From an uncultured delta proteobacterium (GTDB lineage Bacteria; Desulfobacterota; Binatia; JACPRU01): a stretch of DNA of 54,698 nucleotides. Positions within the stretch are counted from its first letter, which is position 1. Each line of letters starts with the position of its first letter. The notes beneath the pieces were generated by a model. It searched no databases. It saw nothing but the letters and a program-made list of their open reading frames with translations, and was not told the origin of the DNA. Position numbers and translations under genes: made by a program. The DNA lies in the NCBI GenBank assembly GCA_963708955.1, contig CAVPWJ010000058.1, positions 1-54,698 of the forward strand, written 5' to 3'. Positions 21,406-40,080 of the stretch are shown here, one piece after another.

Positions 21406-22283
<878 letters not shown>

Positions 22284-22290
22284 GCCCGGC

Positions 22291-23091
22291 TTACTCCTTC
22301 TCCACGGCGGGGGCTTCCGCGGGTTCGGCGGCGGACGGCTCGCTGGGCGTCTCCGCGGGTGATGCCTCGGCCTGCGATGGAGGCGCTTCCGCCGCCGATT
22401 CCGTCGCCGGCGGCTCCGCCGCATGCGCCGCGCGCTCGAGCGCATCGGCCGATGCGCCGAGCTCCTCGAGCTTCGGCAGCGACGAGAGATCCTTCAGGCC
22501 GAAGGTCTCGAGAAACTCCGGCGTGGTTCCGTAGAGAAGCGGCCGTCCCACCACGTCCTTGCGCCCGAGCACGCGCGCCAGATGGCGATCGAGCAGCGTC
22601 GTCAGCACGGCGTCGACGTCGACACCGCGGATCGCCTCGATCTCGGGGCGGGTCACCGGTTGCCGATAGGCGATCACCGCCAGCGTCTCGAGCGCCGCTC
22701 GCGTCAAGCGCACCGGGCGCTGCGCGAGCAGCGCCTTGACGAACTCGGCGTTTCCCCGCGAGGTGCGCAATTGGTACCCACCGGCCACCTGCTGCAACCG
22801 GAAACCGCGCGCATCCCGCGCGTATTCCTCGGCGAGCTCGTTCAGTGCCCGCACGACGTCGCGCCGCCCGTAGCCCGGAAGAATCTGCACGATGCGCGCG
22901 AGCGACACGGGATCGCCGGCCGCGAACAGCAGGCTCTCGAGGATCGAGCGTAGGCGCAGCAACACGGCAGCCGCAGTCGGCTCGGTACTGTCCATCGCGG
23001 CTTCCGCGCCTGGCGCTTCGGATGCCACGGCCTCGAGCGGCGAGATCTCGTCAGGTGCTTGCCTGAGCGTACTGCCCTCGTCTTCGATCAC
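22291..23091 (-). CDS. scpB: Segregation and condensation protein B
   Basis: LESLLFAAGDPVS, VAGGYQLRT, LTRAALETLAVIAYRQPVTRPEIEAIRGV, GRPLLYGTT.EFL; GTG start with GAGGA SD (start uncertain). Confidence 0.95.
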   Translation of the reverse strand: MIEDEGSTLRQAPDEISPLEAVASEAPGAEAAMDSTEPTAAAVLLRLRSILESLLFAAGDPVSLARIVQILPGYGRRDVVRALNELAEEYARDARGFRLQQVAGGYQLRTSRGNAEFVKALLAQRPVRLTRAALETLAVIAYRQPVTRPEIEAIRGVDVDAVLTTLLDRHLARVLGRKDVVGRPLLYGTTPEFLETFGLKDLSSLPKLEELGASADALERAAHAAEPPATESAAEAPPSQAEASPAETPSEPSAAEPAEAPAVEKE

Positions 23092-23112
23092 GTGCAGAAA
23101 TCCTCTTCGTAA

Positions 23113-23226
23113 TGACTGTCGACCCGAGTCTACGCCGCCGCGACCAGCGGATGAGCGGCGGCCCGAGGTGCCGGCAAAGAGCAGCGCACCCCTGCCGCTA
23201 GCTCCATCCGCATCCACGCCCAATCC
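23113..23226 (-). repeat. Dispersed structured intergenic element, copy 2
   Basis: Same conserved blocks as 6687-6807; hairpin GCGGATG(G)AGC..GCGGC..GGGTGC / GCACCT..GCCGC.GCTCATCCGC. Confidence 0.7.
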
Positions 23227-23233
23227 CCTACCC

Positions 23234-23986
23234 TCACCCCTTGTAGTCGGATTTGAAGGCGAGCGACACCTCGGCGTCTCCGGGCACCGCGAGCGTCAGC
23301 CAAATCGCCCCGAACCGCTCCGCCTGCAGCGCGCGGACCGCGCGCATCCTCATCAGCTCGAGCAACGCCAGGAACGTCGAGATCACCTCGCGCCGCGACA
23401 CCGCCGCGTCGAACAGCCTCGCGAATTCCACGTCCCCCTCCCGCAGCCGCTCGAGAATCAACGGGATGCGGTCGGCGATGGCGATGCGCTCGCTGACGAT
23501 CTCGTGCGCCCTCTCCTCCGGCAACCGCTTGAGAATCTCGCGCAGCGCGTCGATCAGGTCGGCGAGGTCGAGCGGCCGCAGCGGCGGCAGCTCCTTCTTC
23601 TCCTCCTCCGGAGCCTCCGCGGCGCGGCGGAAGACGTCGCGATCGAGGACGTCACGGTCGCCGAGCTGCGCGGCGGCGGCGCGGAAGCGCTGATACTCCT
23701 CGAGCTGCTGAACGAGATCGATCCGGGGGTCCTCCTCTTCGTCCTCTTCGCCTTCGGCCGGCGGCAGCAGCAAGCGCGACTTGACCTGCATGAGCGTCGC
23801 GGCCATCACCAGGTATTCACCGGCGAGATCGAGGTTCAACTGCTCGAAGAGCCGCAGGTAGTCGAGGTACTGATCGGTGATCCGCGCGATCGGGATGTCG
23901 TGGATGTCGACCTCGTCCTTCTTGATGAGGTGCAGCAGCAAATCGAGGGGGCCCTCGAAGATCTCGAGCTGAAAGCGCGGGTTCAC
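23234..23986 (-). CDS. scpA: Segregation and condensation protein A (kleisin)
   Basis: FEGPLDLLLHLI, IPIARITDQYL, EYLVMAATL..KSRLLLP, TFLALLEL. Confidence 0.95.
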   Translation of the reverse strand: MNPRFQLEIFEGPLDLLLHLIKKDEVDIHDIPIARITDQYLDYLRLFEQLNLDLAGEYLVMAATLMQVKSRLLLPPAEGEEDEEEDPRIDLVQQLEEYQRFRAAAAQLGDRDVLDRDVFRRAAEAPEEEKKELPPLRPLDLADLIDALREILKRLPEERAHEIVSERIAIADRIPLILERLREGDVEFARLFDAAVSRREVISTFLALLELMRMRAVRALQAERFGAIWLTLAVPGDAEVSLAFKSDYKG

Positions 23987-24033
23987 GATGATCTCGCCGC
24001 TCGGTGCCGATGCTCCCAGGCGATGCGACTCCC

Positions 24034-25047
24034 TCAGACCAGCCCTACGGCGGCACGCACTTCCTGCATCGTCGCGCTCGCCACGGCGCGCGCGCGGCGG
24101 TTGCCGTCGTCCAGCACCTCGTCGACCAGCGCGGGCTTGGCGTCGATCTCGCGGCGGCGCTCCTGGATCGGCTCCAGATCCTCGAGCACGTGGCGGATCA
24201 TGATCCGCTTGCAGTCGAGGCAGCCGATCGACGCGCTCTTGCAGCCGCGATCCACGTGGGCGAGCTCGTCGGGCGTACAGTAGATCTTGTGGAAGCTCTG
24301 GTAGGCCGGGCAATCCTCGGGGTCGCCGGGGTCGGTGCGGCGCATGCGCCGCGGGTCGGTCATCATGCGCGAGAGCTTCTTCTCCACGTCGGCCGGCGGC
24401 TCGGAGAGGAAGACGGCGTTGTGGTAGCTCTTGCTCATCTTGCGGCCGTCGAGGCCGGAGATCTTCGGCGCCTCGCTGAGCAGCGCCTTGGGCTCGGGAA
24501 AGACCGGCCGATAGAGGTGATTGAACCGCCGCGCAATCTCGCGCGCGACCTCGACGTGGGGCACCTGGTCGGCTCCGACCGGCACCTGGTTCGCCTTGTA
24601 GACGAGGATGTCGGCCGCCTGCAGAACGGGGTAGCCGAGGTGACCGAAGTTGATCTTCGCCATCTCCACGTCGTCGTTGGAAGAGACCAGACCGAGCTCG
24701 CGCGCCTGCTCTTTGACGGCTGGGTTGCGCAGCAGCCACGGCGTCGGCGTGATCATGCCGAAGATCAGGAAGAGCTCCGCGTGCTCGAGAATCGCCGACT
24801 GCCGGAAGATGACCGAGCGCCGCGGATCGAGCCCGACCGCGAGCCAGTCGGCAACCATCTCTCGCGTGCTCTGCGCAATGCCTTCGGTGTGCTCGAATGC
24901 GGTGGTGAGCGCGTGCCAGTCGGCGACGAAGAAGAACGAGCGATAGCTGGCCTGCAGCTTCACCCAGTTCTTGAGCGTGCCGTGCAGGTGTCCGAGATGG
25001 AGCCGCCCGGTCGGCCGAAAGCCGCTCAGCAGAGTGGGCGGGTTCAT
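24034..25047 (-). CDS. trpS: Tryptophanyl-tRNA synthetase
   Basis: SGFRPTGRLHLGH, ADWHALT, YPVLQAADIL, VPVGADQ, KMSKS. Confidence 0.97.
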   Translation of the reverse strand: MNPPTLLSGFRPTGRLHLGHLHGTLKNWVKLQASYRSFFFVADWHALTTAFEHTEGIAQSTREMVADWLAVGLDPRRSVIFRQSAILEHAELFLIFGMITPTPWLLRNPAVKEQARELGLVSSNDDVEMAKINFGHLGYPVLQAADILVYKANQVPVGADQVPHVEVAREIARRFNHLYRPVFPEPKALLSEAPKISGLDGRKMSKSYHNAVFLSEPPADVEKKLSRMMTDPRRMRRTDPGDPEDCPAYQSFHKIYCTPDELAHVDRGCKSASIGCLDCKRIMIRHVLEDLEPIQERRREIDAKPALVDEVLDDGNRRARAVASATMQEVRAAVGLV

Positions 25048-25706
25048 CCGATCAGCACTTCGAGCAGCATTTGGATCGGCCGCCGGACGATCAGCCCCAG
25101 CGAGTGCGACATCAGCAGCACGATGAGGATCAGGAAGCCGAATGGCTCGATCTTCGCGAACTGACGCGCCCACTCCAGCGGCAGCAACCCGGTGAGCACG
25201 CGGCCCCCATCGAGCGGCGGGATCGGGATCAGGTTGAAGACGCCGAGGAACACGTTCATGAGCACGCTGTACTGCGCGATCAGGGCGATCGGGTACAGCA
25301 GGGTCTGGAACACGACTTCGGAACCGGCGCCCGCGCTCTTGCGGATGCCGTGGAAGACCAGCGCGCTCAGCGTGGCGAGCATCAGGTTGGTGAGCGGCCC
25401 GGCGGCGGCCACCAGGATCATGTCCCGCTTGGGATTGCGCAGTTGCGCGAAGTTCACCGGCACGGGCTTCGCCCAACCGAACAGGAGCCCGGAGTTGGAC
25501 AGGATCAGCACCAGCGGGATCACCACGCTGCCGATCGGGTCGACGTGGGCGAGCGGATTCAGCGTCAGCCGCCCCGCGCGTTTGGCGGTGTCGTCACCGC
25601 ACCATCGCGCCACGTAGCCGTGAGCCACCTCGTGGAAAACCACCGCGATCAGGACTGGTAGGATCCACAGCGAGATCTGTTGGATCTGCTCACGCATGTG
25701 CGCCAC
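25044..25706 (-). CDS. Site-2 protease family (M50) membrane metalloprotease
   Basis: HEVAHG, GRLTLNPL.HVDP.G, GWAKPVPVN, AGP, FNLIPIPPLDGGR. Confidence 0.95.
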   Translation of the reverse strand: MAHMREQIQQISLWILPVLIAVVFHEVAHGYVARWCGDDTAKRAGRLTLNPLAHVDPIGSVVIPLVLILSNSGLLFGWAKPVPVNFAQLRNPKRDMILVAAAGPLTNLMLATLSALVFHGIRKSAGAGSEVVFQTLLYPIALIAQYSVLMNVFLGVFNLIPIPPLDGGRVLTGLLPLEWARQFAKIEPFGFLILIVLLMSHSLGLIVRRPIQMLLEVLIG

Positions 25707-25743
25707 TTTCTAACACCCGCCCCGAGGTGCCGCAAATACGGCC

Positions 25744-26670
25744 CTAGCGCCGCTTCGAGCGCGGATGGAACTGCCGGTGCACCTCGCGCAGCTTGGCGCG
25801 GGCGACCTCGGTGTAGATTTGCGTGGTCGAAATGTCGGCGTGGCCGAGCATCGCCTGCACGGCGCGAAGATCGGCGCCGCCTTCGAGCAGGTGCGTGGCG
25901 AAGGAGTGGCGCAGCCGGTGCGGGCTGACCGGCGGCAGCCCGAGGGCAAGCGCGCGGCGGCAAAGCAGCTTCCAGAAGCCCTGGCGCGACATCGCCCGCC
26001 CGCGCGACGTCACGAACACATGCGGGCTCGCGCGGCCGCGGAGAATCGCCGCGCGCGCGCCGTCGAGATACGTTCGCAGCGCGTCTCGGGCCGGAACGCC
26101 GAGCGGCACCGGGCGCTCCTTGTTCCCCTTGCCGATCACCAACAGGTAGCCGGCTTCGAGGTTCAACTGCGCGAGGCGCAGCGAGACCAGCTCCGAGACG
26201 CGCAGGCCGGCGCCGTAGAGCGTTTCGAACATCGCGCGATCGCGGGCGCCGCCGGGACCATCGAACGGCGCGTCGAGAAGCCGCCGCACGTCTTCCCGCG
26301 TCCAGGGGCGCGGCAGCCGGCGGGGCAGGCTCGAGGAGCGCACGCCCGCCGCCGGGCTCCGCGGCAGCGCGCCCGAAGTCTCGAGAAAGCGGAGCCAGCC
26401 GCGCGCCGCCGAGAAGCGGCGCGCCACGCTCGCGGGCGCCAGCGATCGGTCGCGCAGCCAGCCGAGGTAATCGACCAGGTCGTCGGCATCGACCACGCGA
26501 GGATCGCCGCGACCACGCTCGGCGAGGAACGCGGCAAGCGCGGCAAGATCGCGTCCGTAAGCGTCGAGCGTGTTGCGCGACAGGCCGCGGCTGGTGGCGA
26601 GGTACGCCAGGTAAGCGTCGACGCTATGGTCGATCGCGACGGCCGGCGCGCGCGGAGCGGGCGTCGTCAT
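25744..26670 (-). CDS. xerD: Tyrosine recombinase XerD
   Basis: GLSRNTLDAY, LYGAGLRVSEL, GKGNKER, MSRQGFWK, SPHRLRHSFATHLL, LGHADISTTQIYT; ATGA coupling to glnD. Confidence 0.93.
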   Translation of the reverse strand: MTTPAPRAPAVAIDHSVDAYLAYLATSRGLSRNTLDAYGRDLAALAAFLAERGRGDPRVVDADDLVDYLGWLRDRSLAPASVARRFSAARGWLRFLETSGALPRSPAAGVRSSSLPRRLPRPWTREDVRRLLDAPFDGPGGARDRAMFETLYGAGLRVSELVSLRLAQLNLEAGYLLVIGKGNKERPVPLGVPARDALRTYLDGARAAILRGRASPHVFVTSRGRAMSRQGFWKLLCRRALALGLPPVSPHRLRHSFATHLLEGGADLRAVQAMLGHADISTTQIYTEVARAKLREVHRQFHPRSKRR

Positions 26671-29387
26671 CCCCCGGCTGGCGACTCGTCTTCCAGCCTC
26701 CGCCGCACCGCCTCGCAGATCTCCTGCATGCGGCTCCAGTCGGTGATCTTGTGGCCCGCGGCGTCGGTCACGTAGAAGACGTCGTAGACGTGGTGCAGCA
26801 CGGTCGAGATCTTCGCCAGGTGGATGAGGCAGCCCTGGCGATAGAGCGCGTTGGTGATCGCGAACAAGAGGCCGATCTGATCGCGGGTCGAGACCTCGAT
26901 CAGGCTGTAGTACTCGGAGTCCTGTAGGTCGAACGTCACCGAGGTCTCGATGTGCGGCAGCGGCCGGCGGGTGAGCACGGTCGGGCGCTGCGAGCGCCGC
27001 ACCATGGCCTCCACCGACGTCTCGCCGCGCAGCACGCTTCCGAGGCTCTCGCGCACGCGCCGCCAGCGATCCTCGTCGAGCACGCGGTCGGTCGACTCGC
27101 CGTGCGACAGGCGGAAGACGTCGAGCGCCAGGCCGTTGCGGCTGGTGCTGATCTGCGCGCCGAGAATGTTCATGCCGTGAGCGGCGAGCACGCCGGCGAT
27201 CATCGAGAACAGCCCGGGCCGGTCGGCCGCGCACACCGTGAACTCGGTGAACTCGCGGTCCTTGAAATGGCGAATCGAACAAGTGAACTCTTCGCCCGAC
27301 TCGTGGAACTCGCGCAGCAGCTCGAGGTGGTGCGCGAAGCTCTGCTTGGGCGTGGTGAGGAAATAGCTCGCCGGCATGCTCTGCAGTATGAGCTGGAGCG
27401 TCGCGCGCGCGCCGCCGTCTCGCCCGGTGAACTGCTGTCGCAGGCGCTCGCGCACCCGTTCGACGCGCGCCTCCCGCGCCTCCTCGGCGAACTCGCCCCT
27501 CTCGAAGAGCTCGAGCGTCCGCAGGTAGAGCTCGCCGAGCAGGAGGTCGCGCCAGTTGTTCCACACCTTCGGAGCCACGGCGCGCATGTCCGCGAACGTC
27601 ATCACGTAGAGGCGCTTCAGCACGTCCACGCTGCCCACGTGCCGCGCGAAATCGATGATCACCCGGTCGTCGTGCAAGTCGCGATGCTGGGCGACGTGCG
27701 ACATCAGCAGGTGGTGGCGGACAAGCCGCTCGACGTGACTCACGTCGTCGTCGTCGAGCCCGAGCCGCCGGGCGACCTGCTCGGCGAGCCGCGCGCCGCG
27801 GTCGGAATGTCCCTGCCCGTGTCCCTTGCCGACGTCGTGCAGCAACATGGCGAGGTAGAGCACCTCCGGCCGCTCGATCTCGTGCACCACCTGGGTGAGC
27901 AGCGGGCACGACTCGCGGTGCCGCCCGGCACCGAGCTGCTCGAGCTCCATGACGGCGCGCAGCGTGTGCTCGTCCACCGTGTAGATGTGGTAGAAATCGC
28001 GGATCACCATGCAGCGTAGTTGGCCGAACTCCGGGACCAGCGCGCCGAGCGCACCGACGTCGTGCATCGTGCGCAGCGTCTCGTAGGTTCGCGCTCGCCC
28101 GCGCAGGATCTCGAGGAGCGGCTGGGTCACCGCTTTCGAGGCGCACGCTGCTTCGAGGCGCGCCGCAGCCGCAGCCAGCAGCGCCCGCGCCCGGCTGCCG
28201 ATCTCGACGCCGTGGCGCTGCGACTCGAGGAACACGCCGACCACCTCGGCTGGGTCGTCGAGGACGTCGGGATCGTCGATGGTGATCTCACCGCCGACGA
28301 TGCGCACTCCGGCGCGGATTCGCCGGCTGAAGATGCGCCCGAGCCGGCGCGGGCGCTCGATGCAGCGCTCGATCACCAGATCGGCGAAGCGCTTCAGCCG
28401 CGCCGCGTGCAGGTAATAGTCCTGGAGAAAGCGTTCGACGGCCCGCCGCTCGCCGGCGTCGCGGTAGCCGAATGCGGCCGCCACCCGCTCCTGATGCTCG
28501 AAGGTGAGCTGGTCCTGATGGCTGCCGCTCAGGAAATGCAGGGTGTTGCGCACCTTCCACAGGAAGTCGCGCGACTCGAGGACGGCGTCGAGCTCGCTCT
28601 CCGGTACAACGCCCTTCTGCACGATCTCGCGCAGGCGCTTGGCCTTGAACTTGATGCGCGCCATCCACAGCGCGGTGTGCAGATCGCGCAGGCCGCCCTC
28701 GCCTTCCTTGACGTGCGGCTCGAGCAGGTAGACCGAGCCGCCGTACTCGCGATGACGGGTAGCGCTCTCCTCGACCTTCTCCTTGAAGAAGCGGTCCGGA
28801 TTGCGGCGCACGATGTCACTTTCGACCACGCGGTCGAACTCGGCGGCGAGGTCGTCGTCGCCGCAGAGGAAGCGCGCGTCGAGCAGCGCGGTCCTCACCT
28901 TGAGATCGCGCGCGGCGAGCCGCGCGCACTCCGGAACGCTGCGCACGGCGTGGCCGACATGCAGCCCCGTGTCCCACAGGCTGTAGAGGATCGCCTCGGC
29001 GACGCTCTCGACGAACGGCGTCACCTTCCACTGATAGAGGAACAGCAGGTCGACGTCGGAAAACGGGTTCAGCTCGCCGCGCCCGTAGCCACCCTGCGCG
29101 AGCACCGCGCATTTCTGGTTCACGCGCACGTTGCGACGTGCGAAGTCCTCGACCGCCGCCGCGTGGAGAAAGCCGACCACGCGGTCCATGACTGCGGTGA
29201 ACGCCTCGACGACCTCCGCGCCGCTCGCTCCGGCGGCGTTCCAGGCGTCGAGCCGCGCGCGCGCCTGCTGCACGGCGGCGCGGGCGATCGCGCCAATCTC
29301 CTCGCGTCGTCCGTCGACCGCCGGCAGGACGATGTCTTCGGGACGGAATGCGGGCGCGAGCCCTGGGCGAGCGAGGTTCATGGCCAA
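26667..29387 (-). CDS. glnD: [Protein-PII] uridylyltransferase/uridylyl-removing enzyme
   Basis: GGYGRGEL.P.SDVDL, EPHVKEGEGGLRD, YTVDEH, LLHDVGKG, two ACT domains (DRPGLF, DQIGLL). Confidence 0.96.
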   Translation of the reverse strand: MAMNLARPGLAPAFRPEDIVLPAVDGRREEIGAIARAAVQQARARLDAWNAAGASGAEVVEAFTAVMDRVVGFLHAAAVEDFARRNVRVNQKCAVLAQGGYGRGELNPFSDVDLLFLYQWKVTPFVESVAEAILYSLWDTGLHVGHAVRSVPECARLAARDLKVRTALLDARFLCGDDDLAAEFDRVVESDIVRRNPDRFFKEKVEESATRHREYGGSVYLLEPHVKEGEGGLRDLHTALWMARIKFKAKRLREIVQKGVVPESELDAVLESRDFLWKVRNTLHFLSGSHQDQLTFEHQERVAAAFGYRDAGERRAVERFLQDYYLHAARLKRFADLVIERCIERPRRLGRIFSRRIRAGVRIVGGEITIDDPDVLDDPAEVVGVFLESQRHGVEIGSRARALLAAAAARLEAACASKAVTQPLLEILRGRARTYETLRTMHDVGALGALVPEFGQLRCMVIRDFYHIYTVDEHTLRAVMELEQLGAGRHRESCPLLTQVVHEIERPEVLYLAMLLHDVGKGHGQGHSDRGARLAEQVARRLGLDDDDVSHVERLVRHHLLMSHVAQHRDLHDDRVIIDFARHVGSVDVLKRLYVMTFADMRAVAPKVWNNWRDLLLGELYLRTLELFERGEFAEEAREARVERVRERLRQQFTGRDGGARATLQLILQSMPASYFLTTPKQSFAHHLELLREFHESGEEFTCSIRHFKDREFTEFTVCAADRPGLFSMIAGVLAAHGMNILGAQISTSRNGLALDVFRLSHGESTDRVLDEDRWRRVRESLGSVLRGETSVEAMVRRSQRPTVLTRRPLPHIETSVTFDLQDSEYYSLIEVSTRDQIGLLFAITNALYRQGCLIHLAKISTVLHHVYDVFYVTDAAGHKITDWSRMQEICEAVRRRLEDESPAGG

Positions 29388-29439
29388 GCGGACAATCTAC
29401 CGCAAAAGGCTCGGCGAGTCTTCGCGGCCCGTCGCGACC

Positions 29440-30747
29440 TCACAGTGTCTTGGCGAGCCTGACCTGCGACAGGTAGCGGCGAATCCCCTGGAAGATGCCG
29501 TCCGCCAGCGCCTCCTGGTACATGGACGTTCCGAGGCGGCGGCCTTCGACCGGGTTGGTGAGGAACGACACCTCGACCAGCACGCACGGCATATAGGCGC
29601 CGACCAGGACGTAGAACGGCCCCTCCTTGACGCCGAGATCCTCGACGCCCTCGTAGCGGTCCTGCAGCCGCGAGACCACCGCGCCTTGCAGGTGCTCGGC
29701 GAGCTGCTTCGACTCCTCGACCTTGTAGGTCTGCCGCAGGTCACTCAGGATGTAGGAGAGATCGGGGATCGCCGCCTGCAGCTTCGGGTTGCGCGGATCC
29801 CAGCGCAGGTCGTTCTCCATGGCGGCGAGTCGCAGCGTGCCGCGGTTGCCCGTGTTGTTCAGGTAGTAAACCTCGACGCCGCGCAGCGCGGGGTTCGTGC
29901 TCGCGTTGGCGTGGACCGAGAGGAAGAGGTCGGCGCCCTGCGCGTTGGCGAATCCGGTTCGCTCTTCGAGCGAGAGGAAGCGGTCGTCGCTGCGGGTGAG
30001 CGCGACGTCGATCGCCGGCTCGGCGCGCAGCAACGCGACGAGCCGCCGGGAGACCGCGAGCACGAGATCCTTCTCGTCGAGCCCGCCGACGCTGCGCGCT
30101 CCCGGGTCCTTGCCGCCGTGACCGGGATCGATGACCACATGGAAGCGCTTGGCCGCGATCGTCGTCTCGGCCGGCGGCGTGGCGGCAGCCTTCCCCGCCG
30201 CGCGCGGCGGGGAAGGCGCGGCTTCGCGGCGCGGCGCCGACGCGGGCGCTCGAGCCGAGGCGCCGTCCGGCACTCGCACCGTATCGAGCCGCCGGATCGT
30301 CGCCTCTTGCGTCGGCGATGCCGCCCCTCTGCCCTTCAGGTCGATCACCAGCCGGTAGGGATCGGGCAGCGTGAACACGCGCGCGTCGGCTTCGGCGGCG
30401 AGATCGAGCACGATACGCGCCGTATCGACGGCGTATTGCCCCGTGCGGATGCCGCGCACCAGAACGTCCCCCACGGACAGCGGCTCGCGCGCCTCGGGAC
30501 CGATCTTCGCCGAAACGAGATCGACCACCAGGCGGTCGGGCGGGCCGGACCCGCCTTCGGGCACGACCGGCGTCATGCGGAACTCGACCGGCCCCGACAG
30601 GTCGACGACGACGCGGCTGTAGGACGCGGTGCCGATGTAGCGGATGCGCTCGACGAGCGTCTTCTCCGCCGAAGAGCCCCACGCTAAACCGGCGACGAGC
30701 ACGGCCGCGATCGCGGCGATCAGGCGATTCTTCCCGGCGGACTTCAC
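29440..30747 (-). CDS. N-acetylmuramoyl-L-alanine amidase with AMIN domain (AmiC-like)
   Basis: Signal peptide, PDRLVVDL/PYRLVIDL AMIN motifs, VIDPGHGGKDPGA, EKD, LFLSVHANA, LVEVSFLTN; GTGA coupling to the mutS stop. Confidence 0.94.
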   Translation of the reverse strand: MKSAGKNRLIAAIAAVLVAGLAWGSSAEKTLVERIRYIGTASYSRVVVDLSGPVEFRMTPVVPEGGSGPPDRLVVDLVSAKIGPEAREPLSVGDVLVRGIRTGQYAVDTARIVLDLAAEADARVFTLPDPYRLVIDLKGRGAASPTQEATIRRLDTVRVPDGASARAPASAPRREAAPSPPRAAGKAAATPPAETTIAAKRFHVVIDPGHGGKDPGARSVGGLDEKDLVLAVSRRLVALLRAEPAIDVALTRSDDRFLSLEERTGFANAQGADLFLSVHANASTNPALRGVEVYYLNNTGNRGTLRLAAMENDLRWDPRNPKLQAAIPDLSYILSDLRQTYKVEESKQLAEHLQGAVVSRLQDRYEGVEDLGVKEGPFYVLVGAYMPCVLVEVSFLTNPVEGRRLGTSMYQEALADGIFQGIRRYLSQVRLAKTL

Positions 30748-33398
30748 GACCGGCTGGCCTCCCGCTTCGCCCGCTCGACCAGGTCGGCCAGCCGCCCGAT
30801 CGCCTCGATCGGCGTCAGGGTCAGCGGATCGATCTCCCGGAGGGCATCGAGGATCGCCCGCTCCTCCGGCGACGACGCGGCGAACAGCCCGAGCTGCCCC
30901 GAGCGACGGCCGTGCGCGGCGAGCCGGGGCTCGCCGGCCTCGTCGCGCTCTCCGCTCTCGAGGTTCCGCAAGATCTCCTGCGCGCGCGCGATCACGCCGT
31001 CGGGCACGCCAGCGAGCCGGGCCACGTGGATTCCGTAGCTCTGGCTCGCCGGGCCCGGCACGATGCGGCGCAAAAAGACCACGTCGCCCTGCCACTCCTT
31101 CACCGCCACCGAGAAGTTCGCCACGCGCTCGGCGGTCAGGGCGAGATCGGTGAGCTCGTGAAAGTGCGTCGCGAACAGGGTCTTCGGCCGCGCCGGCGAG
31201 GCATGCAGGTGCTCGGCCACCGCCCAGGCGATCGAGATGCCGTCGAACGTGCTGGTGCCGCGGCCGATTTCGTCGAGCACGACCAACGAGCGCAGCGTCA
31301 GGTGCGCGAGGATGTGCGCCGTCTCCTTCATCTCGACCATGAACGTGGAGTCGCCCGCGGCCAGGTCGTCGGCCGCGCCAACGCGCGTGAATATGCGGTC
31401 GACGACGCCGACTCGCGCCCGCGAGGCGGGCACGAAGCCGCCCATCTGCGCCATCAAGACGATCAGCGCGTTTTGCCGGAGGTAGGTCGACTTCCCCGCC
31501 ATGTTCGGGCCGGTAAGGACGATCACCTGAGCGCGCTCGGGATCGAGATCGGTGTCGTTCGGCACGAAGCGCCCAGGCGGCAGCGCGCGCTCGATCACCG
31601 GGTGGCGTCCCTCGTGGATCTCGAGCACCGTGGAGCGATCCAGGCTCGGCCGCACGTAGCGGCCGTCGACCGCCACCTCGGCGAGCGAGCGCAGGGCGTC
31701 GATCTCGGCGAGCGCGCCGGCGGTGGCGACGATCTCCGCGAGGCGCGCGGCCCCCTCGGCCACCAACACCGCGAACAGCTCCGCCTCGAGCGCGCGCAGG
31801 CGCTCCTCGGCGCCGAGCACTTTTGCCTCGTACTCCTTCAGCTCCGGGGTCACGAAGCGCTCGCCGCCGGCGATCGTCTGCTTGCGCTGGTAGTCGGCCG
31901 GCACCAGCCGCAGGTTCGCGTTGGTGACCTCGATGTAGTAGCCGAACACCTTGTTGTAGCGGACCTTCAGCGAGCCGATGGTGGTGCGCGCCCGCTCGCG
32001 CGCCTCGAGCTCGGCGATCCAGCTCTTGCCGTCGCGACGAAGCGCGCGCAGATCGTCGACCTCGGGCGAATAACCGGAGCGGACGAGGTCGCCCTGCTTG
32101 GACGAGAGCGGCGGCACGTCGACCAGCGCGCGGGCGACGAGGTCGCGGAGATCCGCGAGCGGAGAGATCCCGGCGCCGAGCTCGCCGAGCAGCGCCGAGC
32201 TCGCCTCGGCAAGCCGCGTCTGGGCAGCCTCGGCCCGCCCGAGCGCCTGGCGCAGCCGCGCCAGATCCCGCGGCGAGGCCGAGCCGCTACCGATCCGCCC
32301 CGCCAGGCGCTCGAGATCGCCGAGGCCGTCGAGCGACCCGCCGAGATCGTCGCGTAGCGCCGAGCTCTCCACCAGCTCCTCCACGGCGTCGAGCCGCCGG
32401 CCGATGCGCGACGGATCGAGCAGCGGATAGAGCAGCCAGCGGCGCAGCACGCGCGCCCCCATCGGCGTCAGCGCGCGGTCGAGCACCGCGAGCAGCGACC
32501 CGCCGCGCTCGCCGCGCGTGTTCTCGACGAGCTCGAGGTTTCGGCGGCTGGCTTCGTCGACGACCAGAAATTCGGCGATGGCGTACGGCTCCGGCGTGCG
32601 CAGGTGCGCCGTGCCGACGAGCTGCCCGTCAAGCACGCTGAGCAGGGCGCCGAGCGCGCCGGCGGCGAGCGGCCGGCAGCGCCAGAAGTCGATCGCCGCC
32701 GCCCCGCCGCGGGTCTCGAGCCAACCGAACAACCGCTCGGCGGAGAACTCGGCGGCCGGCAGCTCGCTGGTACGCAGCGCCGCGGGCAGGCGTGCCGACG
32801 CGGGCGGCGGTATCGAGCCCGCGGCCATCACCACCTCGCGCGGTCGCAACCGGCCGAGCTCCTCGCACAGCGCTTCGAGCGAGTCGATCTCGGCCGCGCG
32901 CAGCTCTCCGGTCGAAAGATCGACGACCGCCAACGCCGATCGCTCGCCGCACGCCACGACCGCGGTGAGATAGCTCGGCGCTCGCGGGTCGAGGCTCTCC
33001 TCCTCGAGCACTGTGCCAGGCGTGACCACGCGCACCACCTTGCGCTCGACGATACCCTTGGCGGTCGCCGGATCTTCGACCTGCTCGCAGATCGCCACCT
33101 TGAGGCCGTGCTCGAGCAGCTTCTGGACGTAGGGCTGGACCGAGTGATGCGGCACGCCGCAGAGCGGGATGGGAGCTTCGTCTCCCTTGTTGCGCGAGGT
33201 GAGCGTCAGATCGAGCAGCCGGCTGGCGCGCTCGGCGTCTTCGAAGAACATCTCGTAGAAGTCACCGAGCCGGTAGAGGAGGATCGCGTCGGGATAACTC
33301 TCCTTGACGCGCAGATATTGCTGCACCATCGGCGTCAGCTTGACGACCGGCGGCGCCTTGTCGGGAAGCCCGAGCGGCAGTCCTAGCACCTCGCTCAC
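30744..33398 (-). CDS. mutS: DNA mismatch repair protein MutS
   Basis: TPMVQQY, GDFYEMFFEDA, VAICEQ, TGPNMAGKSTYLRQ, STFMVEM, DEIGRGTST, FATHFHEL; GTG at 33398 overlaps the upstream stop (alternative start 33419). Confidence 0.98.
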   Translation of the reverse strand: MSEVLGLPLGLPDKAPPVVKLTPMVQQYLRVKESYPDAILLYRLGDFYEMFFEDAERASRLLDLTLTSRNKGDEAPIPLCGVPHHSVQPYVQKLLEHGLKVAICEQVEDPATAKGIVERKVVRVVTPGTVLEEESLDPRAPSYLTAVVACGERSALAVVDLSTGELRAAEIDSLEALCEELGRLRPREVVMAAGSIPPPASARLPAALRTSELPAAEFSAERLFGWLETRGGAAAIDFWRCRPLAAGALGALLSVLDGQLVGTAHLRTPEPYAIAEFLVVDEASRRNLELVENTRGERGGSLLAVLDRALTPMGARVLRRWLLYPLLDPSRIGRRLDAVEELVESSALRDDLGGSLDGLGDLERLAGRIGSGSASPRDLARLRQALGRAEAAQTRLAEASSALLGELGAGISPLADLRDLVARALVDVPPLSSKQGDLVRSGYSPEVDDLRALRRDGKSWIAELEARERARTTIGSLKVRYNKVFGYYIEVTNANLRLVPADYQRKQTIAGGERFVTPELKEYEAKVLGAEERLRALEAELFAVLVAEGAARLAEIVATAGALAEIDALRSLAEVAVDGRYVRPSLDRSTVLEIHEGRHPVIERALPPGRFVPNDTDLDPERAQVIVLTGPNMAGKSTYLRQNALIVLMAQMGGFVPASRARVGVVDRIFTRVGAADDLAAGDSTFMVEMKETAHILAHLTLRSLVVLDEIGRGTSTFDGISIAWAVAEHLHASPARPKTLFATHFHELTDLALTAERVANFSVAVKEWQGDVVFLRRIVPGPASQSYGIHVARLAGVPDGVIARAQEILRNLESGERDEAGEPRLAAHGRRSGQLGLFAASSPEERAILDALREIDPLTLTPIEAIGRLADLVERAKREASRS

Positions 33399-33904
33399 GC
33401 GCCGACCCGTCTTTTCCACCCCGCCGGCGCGCGACGCCGGGGCCGAGCCGTGCCAGTCGCTGGGCGCAACGATCCGCCGGTGCCGATCGCCAGCCGCCCG
33501 ATGCGGCCGCGCAGCGTCCGGACCAGAGGACCGAGCGCGATCGAGAACACGAACTGGCGCTCGATCACGTCGAGGATGCGGCGTCGATCGGCGGTGACCA
33601 GGAACAGGCGCTCGCCGTCAGTCACCAGCTTCAACTGGCCGAGCGGATCGAGCACCTTGGGGTGTACCTCGCGCAGCGCGGCCAGGCTCTTGCGGATGTT
33701 CCGCGGCTTCAAGCCGCGCTCGATCAGCGTGCGCACCACCGACAACCGCACGAGGTCGAGAAAGAAGTAGCGCCGCCGCGTACCACGCCCCGCGGCCGAA
33801 CGCGCCGAAGGCTTCACCAGACCGATCTCGTCCCAGTACTGGATCTGGCGCGGTGTGACGCCGACGATCCGGCAGGCGCCACGGCTGGGAAACCCATCGT
33901 CCAA
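33395..33904 (-). CDS. MerR-family transcriptional regulator (Rv1830/McdR-like)
   Basis: ACRIVGVTPRQIQYWDEIGLVKPS..AAGRGTRRRY..DL, GL...IRK, L.LVTDG, QFVFSIAL; TTG start with GAGAGGA SD. Confidence 0.85.
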   Translation of the reverse strand: MDDGFPSRGACRIVGVTPRQIQYWDEIGLVKPSARSAAGRGTRRRYFFLDLVRLSVVRTLIERGLKPRNIRKSLAALREVHPKVLDPLGQLKLVTDGERLFLVTADRRRILDVIERQFVFSIALGPLVRTLRGRIGRLAIGTGGSLRPATGTARPRRRAPAGWKRRVGA

Positions 33905-33917
33905 TCCTCTCTCCACG

Positions 33918-33937
33918 AGAAAACACCGATGTTTTCT
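33918..33937. promoter_or_regulatory. Palindromic operator in the leader of the MerR-mutS operon
   Basis: AGAAAACA-CCGA-TGTTTTCT, a perfect 8-4-8 inverted repeat between the -10 and the SD. Confidence 0.7.
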
Positions 33938-33944
33938 GTGTGTC

Positions 33945-33973
33945 AGGATACGAAGGTCGCGCGCCGCGGTCAA
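33945..33973 (-). promoter_or_regulatory. sigma70 promoter for the MerR-mutS operon
   Basis: TTGACC-N17-TATCCT. Confidence 0.7.
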
Positions 33974-34046
33974 CTCCGGCGGGCATCGCGCCCACCCGTG
34001 CCGTCGACCTTTCGTTGCGCCCGGCGAAGATGCTACGAGTCTACCA

Positions 34047-34772
34047 GTGAGCCGCCGCCCGCTGATCGGCATCTCCTCCTACCCACGAACCAACTCCCGG
34101 AGCGCTAGCCGCGAAGTCTATCACCTGCCGACCAACTACGTCGACGCGGTGCGCGCCGCCGGCGGCACCCCGCTGATCCTGCCACCCGGCGAGTCCGATC
34201 CACCGCGCATGCTCGACTCGCTCGACGGGCTGATCCTGTCCGGCGGGGGCGATGTGGCGCCGGAGCGCTACGCCGGCCTCGGCCACGATACGATCTATGG
34301 AGTGTCCGAGGAGCGCGACACTTTCGAGATCGAGCTCGCGCGCGCGGCGCTCGCCCGCGACGATTTTCCGTTTCTGTGCATCTGCCGCGGCATGCAGGTT
34401 CTGAACATCGCGCTCGGCGGAGACCTGCATCCCCACCTGCCCGATCTCTGCAAGAGCAACATCGAGCACCGGCTGCCGGAGAAACTACACACGCACCACC
34501 GCGCCACGGTGGCACCCGGGAGCCGGCTCGCCTCGTTCCTCGGCTCCACCGACGTCAAGGTCTGCTCCTGGCACCACCAGGCGATCCGCATACTGGCGCC
34601 CGGTTTGAAGGCCGTAGCCTGGGCGGATGACGGCATCGTCGAGGCGGTGGAGCACGAGATCCATTCGCTGTGCGTCGCCGTGCAGTGGCACCCGGAAATG
34701 CAGATCGACGACCCTGCGCAGCGACGGTTGTTTCGCTCGTTCGTCGAGCTCGCCGGCAACGGGCGGCGGTGA
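34047..34772 (+). CDS. Gamma-glutamyl-gamma-aminobutyrate hydrolase family (peptidase C26, PuuD-like)
   Basis: RPLIGI, Y..AV..AGG.P, LDGLILSGGGDV.P..Y, ICRGMQ, HHQAI, VQWHPE triad. Confidence 0.9.
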   Translation: MSRRPLIGISSYPRTNSRSASREVYHLPTNYVDAVRAAGGTPLILPPGESDPPRMLDSLDGLILSGGGDVAPERYAGLGHDTIYGVSEERDTFEIELARAALARDDFPFLCICRGMQVLNIALGGDLHPHLPDLCKSNIEHRLPEKLHTHHRATVAPGSRLASFLGSTDVKVCSWHHQAIRILAPGLKAVAWADDGIVEAVEHEIHSLCVAVQWHPEMQIDDPAQRRLFRSFVELAGNGRR

Positions 34773-34931
34773 GCCGATGGCCCCACTTCCCTTGCCGGTT
34801 CGGTCGTGCGGGTCGGCCTGAAAGGCGACACCGAGCGCGCTGGCGCTCGTCTTCGACGACACCGACGGAGCTGCCGGCTTCGATGCCCAGCGTCAAGACG
34901 CGAACGATTCACGAATTTCCTAATGAACCGC

Positions 34932-34964
34932 TTGACATACGTCATTTCATCGAATAACCGTTCG
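34932..34964 (+). promoter_or_regulatory. Candidate promoter of lrp-gltBD with overlapping palindrome
   Basis: TTGACA-N17-TAACCG; CGAATAACCGTTCG at 34951-34964; AT-rich island. Confidence 0.55.
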
Positions 34965-34985
34965 GAGCTTTTGGGGTTTTACCTC

Positions 34986-35546
34986 ATGAAATTAGGTGAA
35001 GACACGGACATTGATCTCGACGACATCGACCTCGGCATCCTCTCGCTCCTGCAGGAGAACTGCCGGACGTCGCTCGCCAAGATCGGCGAGCGGGTCGGGC
35101 TGTCGGCTCCGTCGGTGATCGAGCGGGTGAAGAAGCTCGAGGACGGCGGCGTGATCCGCGGCTACCACGCGACCCTCGACGCGCGCAGCCTCGGTATGGA
35201 CATCACCGCGTTCATCGGCGTCTACGTCAGCCACCCGCAATTGATCGGCAGCTTCGAGAGCGAGATCGAAGCGATCGAGGACGTGCTCGAGTGCCACCAC
35301 GTCACCGGCGGCCACACGCTGCTGCTCAAGGTGAAGACCGCGAATACGTCCTCGCTCGAGGCGCTGATTAGCCGACTGCGCTCGATCAACGGCGTCGAGA
35401 AGACCGAGACGATGGTGGTGCTATCGACGCATACCGAACGATCCCAGCTGAAGCTTCCGAGGGTTTCCGCCCCTCCGCTCGGCGCCGAGACGGCGCCCGC
35501 GGACAAGCGGGCGCGGCGCAACGGACATCGCGTGGCACGGGGTTGA
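34986..35546 (+). CDS. Lrp/AsnC-family transcriptional regulator
   Basis: [55 protein letters not shown]. Confidence 0.95.
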
Positions 35547-35550
35547 CGCC

Positions 35551-38500
35551 ATGGAGAGATTGAAAAAGCAGGGACTCTACGATCCGCGTTTCGAGCACGA
35601 CGCCTGCGGCGTCGGCTTCGTGGTCAACGTGCGCGGCGAGAAGTCGCACGACATCGTCGAGAAGGGCCTCACGGTGCTCGCCAACCTCGAGCACCGCGGC
35701 GCCTGCGGCTGCGATCCGCTGACCGGCGACGGCGCGGGCATCCTGCTGCAGATCCCGCACGCGTTCTTCAAGAAAGAGCTGGCGGCGCAAAAGCACCGTT
35801 TGCCCGAGCCCGGCGAGTACGGCGTGGGCATGGTGTTCCTGCCGCGCGAGACGAACCAGCGCAACGAATGTCAAGAGATCTTCGAGAGCGCGGTGCGCGA
35901 GGCCGGTCTCCGGCTGATCGGCTGGCGGCACGTTCCGGTCGATTCCGCCGAGTGCGGGCCGCAGGCGCGGGCGATCATGCCGGAGATCCGCCAGATCTTC
36001 ATCGGCCGCGACGGCCGGAGCGTGAAGGACCAGGCGACGCTCGAGCGCAAGCTCTACGTCGTGCGCAAGGTGGTCGAGAACCGCGTGACCGACTCCGGGA
36101 TGCCGGAGAACGAGGCCTTCCACGTCGCCAGCCTCTCGTCGCGCACCGTGGTCTACAAGGGCCTGCTGATCTCGTGGCAGATCCCGAAGTTCTACAAGGA
36201 CCTCCGTGACCCGGCCATCGCCTCCGCGCTGGCGCTGGTGCACCAGCGATTCTCCACCAACACGCTGCCGTCCTGGGATCGCGCGCACCCCTACCGCTTC
36301 CTCGCCCACAACGGCGAGATCAACACGCTGCGCGGCAACGAGAGCTGGATGCACGCCCGCGAGAAGAACTTCGCCTCGCCGCTGTTCGGCGAGGACGTCG
36401 AGAAGATCGTGCCGATCATCAATCCACGGGGCTCGGACTCGGCGAAGTTCGACAACGCGCTCGAGCTGCTGATGCTCACCGGCCGCTCGATCGACCACGC
36501 CGTCATGATGATGATCCCCGAGGCGTGGCAGAACCACGAGTCGATGAGCGAGACGAAGCGCGCTTTCTACGAGTACCAGTCCTGCCTAATGGAGCCGTGG
36601 GACGGTCCGGCGTCGATCGCCTTCACCGACGGCGTGCGCATCGGCGCGGTGCTCGACCGCAACGGACTGCGCCCCTCGCGCTACGTGGTCACCAAGGACG
36701 GCCTGGTGGTCATGGCCTCCGAGGTCGGCGTGCTCGACATTCCACCCGAGAACGTCGAGGCCAAGGGGCGGCTCCAGCCCGGGCGCATGTTCCTGGTCGA
36801 CACCAGCCTCGGCCGCATCGTCGGCGACGACGAGATCAAGGAGCGCATGGCGGCGCGCCGGCCCTACCAGCAGTGGCTCGACGAGAACCTGGTGAGGCTA
36901 TCGAGCTTACCGCCGGCGCAGTCGCTGCCCGAGCGCTTCGACAAGGCAACGCTGCTCGAGCAGCAGCAGGCCTTCGGCTACACGATCGAGGACCTCAGGT
37001 TGTTGATGGCGCCGATGGCGATCAACGGCCAGGAGGCGGTCGGCTCGATGGGCACCGACACGCCGCCGGCGGTGCTGTCGGACCGCCCGCAGTTGCTGTT
37101 CGGCTACTTCCAGCAGCTCTTCGCCCAGGTCACCAACCCCTCGATCGACCCGCTCCGTGAGGAGCTGGTGATGTCGGTCTCCACCATGCTCGGCGCCGAG
37201 CAGAACCTGTTCGAGGAGACGCCGCTGCATTGCCGGCAGCTCGAGGTGAAGACGCCGGCGCTCGGCAACGCGGATCTCGAGCGCATCAAAGAGCTCGATC
37301 AAGAGGGTCTGCGGACCATCACGCTGTCGACGCTCTTCCACTGCGAGGGCGGCGAGGCGGCGCTCGAGAAGGCCGTCGAGGACCTCTGCCAAAACGCTTC
37401 CGACGCGGTCACCGCCGGAGCGACGATTCTGGTGCTCTCCGATCGCGGCGTCGACAAGGAGCACGCGCCGATCCCGTCGCTGCTCGCCGTGGCGGCCGTC
37501 CACCACCACCTGATCCGCAAGGGCACGCGCACGCGCTGCGGCCTGGTCGTCGAGAGCGGCGAGCCGCGCGAGATCCACCACTTCGCGCTGCTCGTCGGCT
37601 ACGGAGCGGGCGCGTTCAACCCGTATCTCGCCTACGAGACCGTGATCGACATGGTCGAGGAGGGAGTAATCAAGGGGGTCGGTGCCGAGGAGGCTGTCGA
37701 GCACTACCGCAAGGCGATCGGCAAGGGCCTGCTCAAGGTGATGTCCAAGATGGGCATCTCGACGCTGCAGAGCTACCACGGCGCGCAGATCTTCGAGGCC
37801 GTCGGGCTCTCCCGCGAGTTGATCGACAAGTACTTCACATGGACGGCGTCGCAGATCGAGGGCATCGGCCTCGACACCATCGCCGCCGAGGTGAAGGCCC
37901 GTCACGACTACGCCTACGAGGTCTCGCCGTCGCTCGACGGCGAGCTCGATGCCGGCGGGCAGTACCAGTGGCGCCGGCGCGGCGAATACCACGCCTACAA
38001 CCCGGAGACGATCGCCAAGCTGCAGCACGCGGCGCGCTCCGGCAAGTACGCGCTGTTCAAGCAGTACTCCGCGGAGGTCAACGATCACAGCGAGAAGCTC
38101 CGTACGCTGCGCGGGCTGCTGAAGCTCAAGCCGGGAATTCCCATTCCGCTCGAGAAGGTCGAGCCCGCCTCCGAGATCGTCAAGCGCTTCAAGACCGGCG
38201 CGATGTCGCTCGGCTCGATCAGCCGCGAGGCGCACGAAACGCTGGCCATCGCCATGAACCGCATCGGCGGCAAGTCGAACACCGGCGAAGGCGGCGAGGA
38301 CCCGGCGCGCTTCACTCCCGACGAGAACGGCGACCTGCGGCGCAGCGCGATCAAGCAGGTGGCGTCGGGTCGGTTCGGCGTGACCTCGCACTACTTGGTC
38401 AACGCCGACGAGCTGCAGATCAAGATCGCCCAGGGCGCGAAGCCCGGCGAGGGCGGTCAGCTGCCCGGTCACAAGGTCGACGAGTACATCGCCAAGATCC

Positions 38501-40080
38501 GCTACTCGACGCCCGGCGTCGGCCTGATCTCGCCGCCGCCGCACCACGACATCTACTCGATCGAGGACATCGCGCAGCTGATCTACGACCTGAAGAACGC
38601 CAACGACCGCGCACGGGTGAGCGTCAAGCTGGTCTCCGAGATCGGCGTCGGCACGGTGGCGGCCGGCGTCTGCAAGGCCAAGGCCGACGTGGTACTGATC
38701 AGCGGATACGAAGGCGGCACCGGCGCCTCGCCGCTCACCTCGATCAAGCACGCCGGCACGCCGTGGGAGCTCGGCCTCGCCGAGACCCAGCAGGTGCTGG
38801 TGATGAACAACCTGCGCGGTCGCATCCGCGTCGAGACCGACGGCCAGTTGAAGACGGGGCGCGATGTGGCAATCGCGGCGCTGCTCGGCGCCGAGGAGTT
38901 CGGCTTCGCCACCGCCGCGCTGGTGGCCTCGGGCTGCATCCTGATGCGCGTCTGCCACCTGAACACCTGCCCGGTCGGCATCGCTACCCAGGACCCGGTA
39001 CTGCGCCGGCGCTTCGAGGGCCGGCCCGAGCACGTGATCAACTTCATGACGTTCGTCGCCGAGGAGCTGCGCGAGATCATGGCCGAGCTCGGCTTCCACA
39101 CCGTCGACGAGATGGTCGGCCGAGTGGACATGCTCGAGCCGAGGGATGCGATCGAGCATTGGAAAGCCAAGGGCATCGATCTCACGCCGATCCTGCACAA
39201 GCCCGACGTGTCGAGCGACACGCCGATCCACTGCGTGGAAGCGCAGGACCACGGCCTCGACAAGGCGCTCGACAACCAATTGATCGATCTCGCTCGTCCC
39301 GCGCTCGAGCGGCGCGAGACGGTGAAGATCAGTCTGCCGATCCGCAACGTCAACCGCACGGTCTGCACGATGCTTTCGGCGGAGATCTCGCGGCGCTACG
39401 GCGCCGATGGCCTCCCGCCCGAGACCATCCAGATCGCCCTACGCGGCTCGGCGGGGCAGAGCTTCGGGGCGTTCCTCGCCCCGGGCATCTCGGTGCGCCT
39501 CGAGGGCGACGCCAACGACTACTTCGCCAAGGGCATGTCGGCGGGGCGGATCGTCGTCGTGCCGCCGCGCGAAGCCACGTTCGTCCCCGAGGAGAACTCG
39601 ATCGTCGGCAACGTCTCGCTGTACGGAGCAACCGGCGGCGAAGTCTTCCTGCGGGGCCTGGCGGGAGAGCGCTTCGCCGTGCGCAACAGCGGCGCGGTGG
39701 CGGTCGTCGAGGGGGTCGGCGACCACGGATGCGAATACATGACCAAGGGACTGGTGGTCGTGCTTGGCAAGACCGGACGCAATTTCGCCGCCGGAATGAG
39801 CGGCGGCCTCGCCTACGTGCTCGACGCCGACGGCGACTTCGAGCGCCGCTGCAACAAGGGCATGGTGGGCCTCGACCCGCTCGACGACGGCGACGTGAGG
39901 ACGGTCCACGACCTGGTGCGCCGGCACTACGACCTGACCGAGAGCAAGCTCGCCTGGCGCATGCTGTCGGGCTGGAAGGAGATCACCAAGAAATTCGTAC
40001 GGGTCGTGCCGGTCGAGTACCGCAAGGTGCTCGCCGCCCAGCACCTCGACAGCGACGCGGCGAAGCTGGCCTCGATCTAG
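35551..40080 (+). CDS. gltB: Glutamate synthase large subunit
   Basis: [74 protein letters not shown]. Confidence 0.99.

Follow-up and report, generated by a model that had tools for sequence, protein, structure and literature searches.

The window analysed here is a stretch of 54,698 nucleotides (nt) from an uncultured delta proteobacterium of the class Binatia (contig CAVPWJ010000058.1). Its minus strand carries a gene for a MerR-type regulator, followed directly by mutS and by a gene for an AMIN-domain amidase, and a promoter and a perfect palindrome, the putative operator, stand ahead of the regulator gene. An earlier note on this DNA had described the promoter, the palindrome, the regulator, the GTGA couplings that join the three genes and a longer co-directional gene run; the sequence and Pfam searches bear out each of these. 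The features at the head of the unit are as follows.

33968..33973, minus strand: -35 box TTGACC, of which TTGAC is invariant in an alignment of 12 promoters
33945..33950, minus strand: -10 box TATCCT, 17 nt after the -35 box
33918..33937, minus strand: operator palindrome AGAAAACA-TCGG-TGTTTTCT, a putative site that begins 7 nt after the -10 box and covers about +1 to +20
33905..33914, minus strand: Shine-Dalgarno-like sequence GGAGAGAGGA, preceding the TTG start
33395..33904, minus strand: merR-type regulator gene, 169 amino acids, assigned to the CvkR/McdR type mainly by homology
30744..33398, minus strand: mutS, 884 amino acids, MutS domains I-V, its GTG start overlapping the merR TGA stop
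29440..30747, minus strand: N-acetylmuramoyl-L-alanine amidase with AMIN and Amidase_3 domains, 435 amino acids, its GTG start overlapping the mutS TGA

The merR and mutS genes overlap at 33398..33395, and mutS and the amidase gene at 30747..30744. Two in-frame starts are available to the regulator, GTG at 33916 and TTG at 33904; an ATG at 33897, directly past the palindrome, is out of frame with it. The TTG is most likely the start, because GGAGAGAGGA precedes it and because the predicted N-terminus, MDDGFPS, resembles the MDAFDS at which orthologs start; GTG 33916 is the alternative. GGAGG-type sequences occur at the equivalent position in one relative (G151) and in the loci of family f77, one of the four families that carry orthologs.

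A scan of positions 29000..35000 with the sigma-70 consensus returned TTGACC-17 nt-TATCCT (33973..33945) as the sole promoter-like site (1 found, 0.2 expected from shuffles), with no second such site on either strand of that interval. The palindrome, a perfect 8-N4-8 repeat read from 33937 to 33918, is the sole match in the 54.7-kb window even when three mismatches are allowed (0.02 expected; 2 of 100 shuffles gave one). A 17-nt spacer together with an operator downstream of the -10 box makes a repressor layout, and on this point the earlier note, which had placed the operator in a repressor position, was right.

Linkage of the regulator to mutS extends well beyond the window. A protein search of 61 related genomes, with a threshold of E <= 1e-10 for orthologs, found the regulator in 15 genomes including that of the window; the others comprise 7 of 7 from family f1, 5 of 5 from f77, and the single genomes from f85 and f87. 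None of 46 genomes from 13 other families of the same class has an ortholog at that threshold. The related genomes compared are not independent of one another. Immediately after the regulator comes mutS in 14 of the 15 orthologous loci, the fifteenth being cut by a contig end, so the merR-mutS linkage that the earlier note had drawn from one locus is a conserved one. No MutS was found within 1.5 kb in 26 other loci searched. In 8 of 14 loci (those of f1, with the window among them, and of f85) the two genes overlap by (A/G)TGA, and in the five f77 loci a gap of 2-6 nt separates them; in f87 the junction is short, its exact form not being clear. In all ten relatives fetched further downstream the order is merR-mutS-amidase-glnD, and xerD follows glnD in nine of the ten within the 8 kb taken. 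In five genomes from families without the regulator, the gene ahead of mutS is a different and unrelated one, which makes the regulator a lineage-specific addition in front of mutS. In families f2, f3, f5 and f82 (loci L079-L082) the gene that mutS follows is a conserved open reading frame (ORF) of about 460-500 amino acids, open at the locus edge, that ends in NKGRA.YT.PD.LG.Y.LVDY...KKK.

The operator is conserved along with the gene order. The sequence AAACA-N4-TGTTT stands a few nt past a -35/-10 pair in all 15 orthologous loci, from four families. Alignment of 12 promoters from three families shows the TTGAC of the -35 box, one T of the -10 box, AAACA and TGTTT to be invariant and a second -10 position almost so, with a 4-nt center that varies freely. 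Apart from the -35 and -10 boxes, the palindrome is the only conserved block. Invariant half-sites around a free center are the footprint expected for a protein-binding site with two half-sites read by sequence. The genome scan that the earlier note had proposed for AAAACA-N4-TGTTTT gives a single perfect copy, at the merR promoter, in each of five relatives (4.0-5.8 Mb). The window genome (2.98 Mb in 253 contigs, 66% G+C) has its sole perfect GAAAACA-N4-TGTTTTC at the merR promoter. Sites with one mismatch are about as frequent as those of a reversed-pattern control in four of the five relatives, the exception being G158 (14 against 4). In the closed genome G194 (locus L043, family f87) the regulator gene looks broken; its N-terminal helix-turn-helix (HTH) region lies in a different frame closed by a stop codon, and the window protein is matched only from residue 38 onward. 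The promoter and the palindrome are retained there, as is mutS downstream.

Further operator candidates in the window genome were considered and rejected. The sequence AAACA-CTAC-TGTTT (contig C120, about position 2609) stands right after a TTGACA and 45 nt upstream of rpsL, which would make rpsL a second target and calls to mind the ribosomal operon reported to be under ResR/McdR control. It was set aside as a chance match because none of the three relatives with an rpsL match carries it upstream; two more relatives gave no rpsL match. The one-mismatch site GAACACA-TCAC-TGTTTTC (contig C140, 9077-9094) lies about 300 nt inside an ORF of 411 amino acids and is probably a chance occurrence too.

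The regulator passes the Pfam cut-offs for MerR families PF13411 (52.7 bits, cut-off 21.6) and PF00376 (34.3 bits, cut-off 28.2). The MerR_1 match has E 4.8e-14, and the HTH occupies residues 9-76. No Pfam domain is found in the C-terminal half even at E <= 1. The best match by sequence in PDB, for the single protein, is 7xn2, the structure of Alr3614/CvkR (E 3.8e-6); with a profile of 138 family members this match reaches E 1e-21 over chain residues 5-153, covering the HTH, the dimerization domain and the C-terminal helix. The next profile match, GlnR at 2e-13, covers the HTH only. AlphaFold models built from 22 and 138 sequences gave mean predicted local distance difference test (pLDDT) scores of 66 and 82.6. 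The better model places strands at residues 92-95, 100-103, 109-112 and 117-120 and a helix at 124-141, with no long coiled coil, so that the predicted layout is a winged HTH (about 1-80), a beta-strand domain (about 92-120), the C-terminal helix (124-141) and a basic tail. Foldseek returns 7xn2 as top match for both models, with E 8.3e-5 and template modeling (TM) scores of 0.57/0.63 for the shallow model and E 4.4e-4 for the deeper one. A homodimer prediction from two copies of residues 1-142 scored 0.01, where the mark is 0.42, and weighs neither way. Homology, with moderate support from the model, places the regulator among MerR members of the CvkR/McdR type, with a winged HTH and a predicted small beta-strand domain and C-terminal helix, and with no classic coiled coil predicted. 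Close homologs, at 65-96% identity, come from metagenome-assembled genomes (MAGs) labeled Candidatus Binatia and Deltaproteobacteria bacterium. The tail, residues 142-169 or so, is of low complexity and basic, and most f1 and f77 loci share its final residues, (K/R)(K/R)xxxA; overlap with the region where ribosomes bind and start on mutS may constrain this end.

The residue pattern that the earlier note had given for mycobacterial Rv1830 (McdR) proves to be real, since mutagenesis primers in Table S1 of PMC9040748, read in frame, spell SACQIAGITYRQLDYWARTSLVVPSIRSAAGSGSQ. The same table gives the clinical variants I73S, I76V, T77P, Q80R, A85V and V90A. The gene-specific part of the published forward primer matched four loci, in Mycobacterium gastri, M. 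persicum, M. innocens and M. ostraviense, and the M. gastri gene was used for comparison with McdR. It encodes a protein of 223 amino acids with the SACQIAGITYRQLDYWARTSLVVPSIRSAAGSGSQ stretch at matching residue numbers, and has OdhI/GarA and FtsR upstream. The primer match, these neighbors and a residue numbering that fits the published mutants are the reasons for taking it as the McdR ortholog. The window regulator aligns with it at 35% identity over 136 residues (window residues 4-138, E 4e-25), a stretch that takes in the HTH as well as the C-terminal domain. Searched against each other's genomes they are reciprocal best matches (E 2.9e-20 and 7.8e-20), each being the sole real match in the other genome. 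In the pairwise alignment the window protein has I, T, Q and V at the positions of McdR residues I73, T77, Q80 and V90. Neither the window regulator nor M. gastri McdR scores above the cut-off of any NCBIfam model.

The putative DNA site of the window regulator also resembles that of McdR. The published McdR site, AATnACAnnnnTGTnATT, has the ACA-N4-TGT core that the earlier note had given for it; it lies around the transcription start and is described in PMC9040748 as used for repression, with regulation abolished when the spacer length is altered, and the example at whiB2 reads AATCACATCAGTGTCATT. The window site shares the ACA-N4-TGT core, the A/T-rich flanks, the 4-nt center and the position at the predicted transcription start, and the window regulator has the RQxxYW recognition region. 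Differences are found in the protein and its surroundings. The HTH begins near residue 9 in the window protein and near residue 62 in M. gastri McdR, so that the window regulator lacks the N-terminal extension of about 60 residues, a part reported in PMC10336103 to be critical for DNA recognition by ResR/McdR, which by the same source regulates the rplN ribosomal operon. The McdR-group arrangement garA-ftsR-(Rv1829-like)-mcdR, of which M. gastri shows OdhI/GarA and FtsR upstream, and a long disordered N-terminal extension are both absent at the window gene, which has mutS and the amidase gene downstream and the peptidase C26 gene upstream.

CvkR (Alr3614, PDB 7XN2) is the other characterized relative, and PMC9938897 describes it as a repressor of type V-K CRISPR-associated transposons in cyanobacteria, with a winged HTH (1-80), a beta-strand dimerization domain (81-132) and helix alpha7, and terms its group a discrete MerR subfamily. 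The predicted layout of the window regulator resembles this one. Both have a palindrome in the transcription start and -10 region of the target promoter; the CvkR site, AnnACATnATGTnnT, overlaps both elements and is bound for repression (PMC9938897). The centers differ, 3 nt in CvkR (ACATnATGT) and 4 nt in the window, and the CvkR mRNA is leaderless (PMC9938897), whereas about 34 nt of leader, a Shine-Dalgarno sequence included, would precede the start codon of the window regulator. The predicted targets differ as well, being housekeeping repair and cell-wall genes in the window and mobile-element genes for CvkR. The CvkR paper itself reports 33% identity and a similar predicted structure for CvkR and McdR (PMC9938897), so the branch is already known in print. 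TnrA/GlnR proteins share the MerR-type winged HTH (PDB 4r4e and 7tea at E 1e-5 to 1e-4; NCBIfam TnrA model at E 1.8e-5, below its cut-off) and are repressors at palindromes, as is proposed for the window regulator, but the sequence match is limited to the HTH, and PMC9938897 describes their dimerization as proceeding through an extra N-terminal helix. Classic MerR, CueR and SoxR share the Pfam MerR_1 HTH; the window system differs from them in having no predicted coiled-coil dimerization helix, a 17-nt spacer and an operator downstream of the -10 box.

The branch as a whole is large. A profile of 22 sequences, searched against 1.84 billion sequences, collects 10281 cluster representatives at E <= 1e-3 and 2870 at E <= 1e-10. 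The actinobacterial motif YRQLDYWA occurs in 22 of the best 148 representatives, one of them from the actinomycete Natronoglycomyces albus. Many members carry a C-terminal fusion to a HicB-like antitoxin/UPF0150 domain (P0095-P0214), with sources that include MAGs of Nitrospirota, Thermodesulfobacteriota and Actinobacteria. A quick maximum-likelihood tree of 156 rows, with support from the Shimodaira-Hasegawa-like approximate likelihood ratio test (SH-aLRT), was built from representatives of 135 to 270 amino acids, with one apparent chimera removed. It places the window protein with its family-level orthologs in a clade of 99% support, which f77 and f85 forms and HicB-fused sequences adjoin. 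Downstream genes vary among the HicB-fused relatives (L004-L010), with FtsK in one and a methyltransferase and an alcohol dehydrogenase in others; in L011 and L012, relatives of a third type that lacks the fusion, the downstream gene encodes a ParA/MinD-like ATPase.

We consider it probable that the window regulator is an autorepressor of the CvkR/McdR type that acts at the transcription start, so that a message from which MutS and the AMIN amidase are also made would come under negative feedback. Bound as a dimer to the AGAAAACA-N4-TGTTTTCT palindrome at about +1 to +20, the regulator would block initiation or early elongation by RNA polymerase. Blocking is proposed because the palindrome comes right after the -10 box and the promoter has an optimal 17-nt spacer; the palindrome is read as a repressor site also because the characterized relatives McdR and CvkR bind similar palindromes at the transcription start as repressors. 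Since merR, mutS and the amidase gene are joined by overlapping stop and start codons, the feedback would set the levels of regulator, MutS and septal amidase jointly. A signal sensed by the C-terminal part of the regulator could lift or strengthen the repression. What the sequences show directly is the features themselves, the homology, the conservation of site and gene linkage, and the single occurrence of the site per genome; that the protein binds DNA and forms a dimer, that it represses, that the genes share a transcript and that there is a signal to sense are things that we infer.

Several observations weigh against this autorepressor and against its kinship with McdR. In the tree, M. 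gastri McdR falls in an actinobacterial clade on a side of 57 rows and the window clade on a side of 99 rows that also holds many other sequences, HicB-fused forms among them, the split having 95% SH-aLRT support. Their standing on opposite sides of this split makes the window protein a member of the McdR/CvkR branch and not a strict sister or ortholog of McdR; the McdR-like identity put forward in the earlier note thus holds as far as the reciprocal best match and the shared identity go, and fails as a common clade. The only strong site of the window system is at the regulator's own promoter, whereas the region upstream of M. gastri mcdR has no ACA-N4-TGT site, so autoregulation is not a trait of the whole family. 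Among distant HicB-fused relatives, of about 40% identity, only four of seven have ACA-N4-TGT at the same place in the promoter. In the window genome, which is about 80% complete, AACA-N4-TGTT is not enriched (6 sites, where spacers of 0-8 give 0-20), and no wider regulon is visible from these counts. On the structural side, the TM-scores with 7xn2 dropped to 0.41/0.46 with the better model, and VIA-align gave 7xn2 a Z of 10.2 over only 84 aligned residues, a tie with the Z of about 9 obtained for ordinary MerR HTH domains. Because of that tie, the CvkR-type architecture rests mainly on sequence, with moderate structural support.

The promoter scan used the sigma-70 consensus only, so that promoters of other types would escape it and an internal mutS promoter within merR is possible, which is one more point against joint control. 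The first of the other explanations is that the regulator meaningfully represses only its own synthesis, that MutS and the amidase come mainly from an internal or read-through promoter, and that the linkage is a matter of gene order. The related families that keep mutS behind another gene, with no merR, likewise indicate that mutS can be expressed without the regulator. We nevertheless hold this to be unlikely, given that in 13 of 14 loci, from four families, merR and mutS overlap by 4 nt or stand 2-6 nt apart, which leaves no intergenic space, and given the adjacency of the two genes in all but the truncated locus. Activation, or dual regulation, by DNA distortion of the classic MerR kind, with the palindrome mediating induction, would suit a family in which most characterized proteins are activators, and McdR overexpression raises imuAB/dnaE2 expression (both from PMC9040748). 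That mechanism, however, requires a spacer of 19-20 nt with the operator between the -35 and -10 boxes. The window and the 12 aligned promoters have instead a 17-nt spacer with the operator past the -10 box, and the closest characterized relatives repress at the transcription start; we therefore think an activator very improbable.

The palindrome might also act in RNA, as a hairpin in the 5' leader that affects stability or translation, and not as a DNA site for a protein. With a transcription start about 7 nt past the -10 box it would be part of the RNA, and the predicted 46-nt leader (33895-33940, minus strand) folds somewhat better than shuffles, at -13.5 kcal/mol and z -2.1. Yet the minimum-energy fold leaves the palindrome hairpin unused and pairs the right half-site with the Shine-Dalgarno region. 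Furthermore, AAACA and TGTTT are invariant as sequence, with no compensatory changes in the 12 promoters, and the motif resembles the DNA sites of the homologous regulators McdR and CvkR. A hairpin in place of a protein-binding site is, for us, the least credible of these explanations, and hardly to be expected. The pairing of the right half-site with the Shine-Dalgarno sequence could, as a separate matter, add a translational layer of control.

Repair content sets the proposed autorepressor circuit apart from that of McdR. The M. gastri genome gave no MutS_V match, and Corynebacterium is outside the 11 of 14 control genomes that did match. This agrees with the known lack of MutS in actinobacteria. 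An McdR-like ancestral state therefore cannot have supplied the repair content of the circuit. The earlier note had proposed a non-actinobacterial McdR-like circuit, of which the conserved operator and the conserved merR-mutS linkage stand and the likeness in content does not.

The remaining features of the locus lie downstream of the amidase gene and, in one case, on the other side of the promoter.

26667..29387, minus strand: glnD (PII uridylyltransferase), longest ORF, about 50 nt after the amidase gene, only a candidate for operon membership
21441..26700, minus strand: run of xerD-type recombinase, peptidase M50, trpS, scpA, scpB and rluB-type genes, with approximate bounds taken from longest ORFs
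34047..34772, plus strand: divergently oriented gene for a peptidase C26 / class-I glutamine amidotransferase, separated from the operator by about 110 nt

Pfam recognizes, in one direction, MerR_1, MutS I-V, AMIN with Amidase_3, GlnD, an XerD-type integrase, M50, TrpS, ScpA, ScpB and an RluB-type pseudouridine synthase. For control of glnD, xerD, scpAB and rluB by the regulator, which the earlier note had implied, nothing beyond this shared direction speaks. The C26 neighbor was found in eight loci, the window among them, all of which belong to family f1; it was not found in the f77, f85 and f87 loci, and with that restriction to f1 it probably lies outside the conserved unit. Nitrogen-related genes flank the operon, namely the C26 gene, an AsnC/Lrp-type regulator and the glutamate synthase large subunit on one side (34047-40080, plus strand) and glnD on the other (26667-29387, minus strand).

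Repressors of this type are known; the window regulator, a predicted CvkR/McdR-type MerR repressor, adds a link to mutS and a septal amidase that is both new and conserved, and its putative self-operator is well conserved. To our knowledge, dedicated transcription factors for mutS are hardly known. Among the literature matches listed there was no paper on a MerR-mutS operon, and none was found that treats both Binatia and mismatch repair. If the autorepressor is as proposed, it would place mismatch repair under feedback control together with an enzyme of cell separation, in a case that is simple and open to test. It would also extend the CvkR/McdR branch beyond the mobile elements of cyanobacteria and beyond actinobacteria, with a nearly identical DNA half-site, and such a shared half-site would help operator prediction for many uncharacterized members among the 2870 cluster representatives.

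A bolder proposal, which we put forward tentatively and with more doubt than belief, is that the regulator serves as a signal-responsive gate on mismatch repair, a dedicated sensor that would set the abundance of MutS, and hence the mutation rate, together with that of the septal amidase. If so, the ACA-N4-TGT code and repression at the transcription start would be an ancient, phylum-spanning property of a MerR branch that would also take in thousands of HicB-fused proteins, and replication fidelity would be coupled to cell separation across a whole uncultured lineage.

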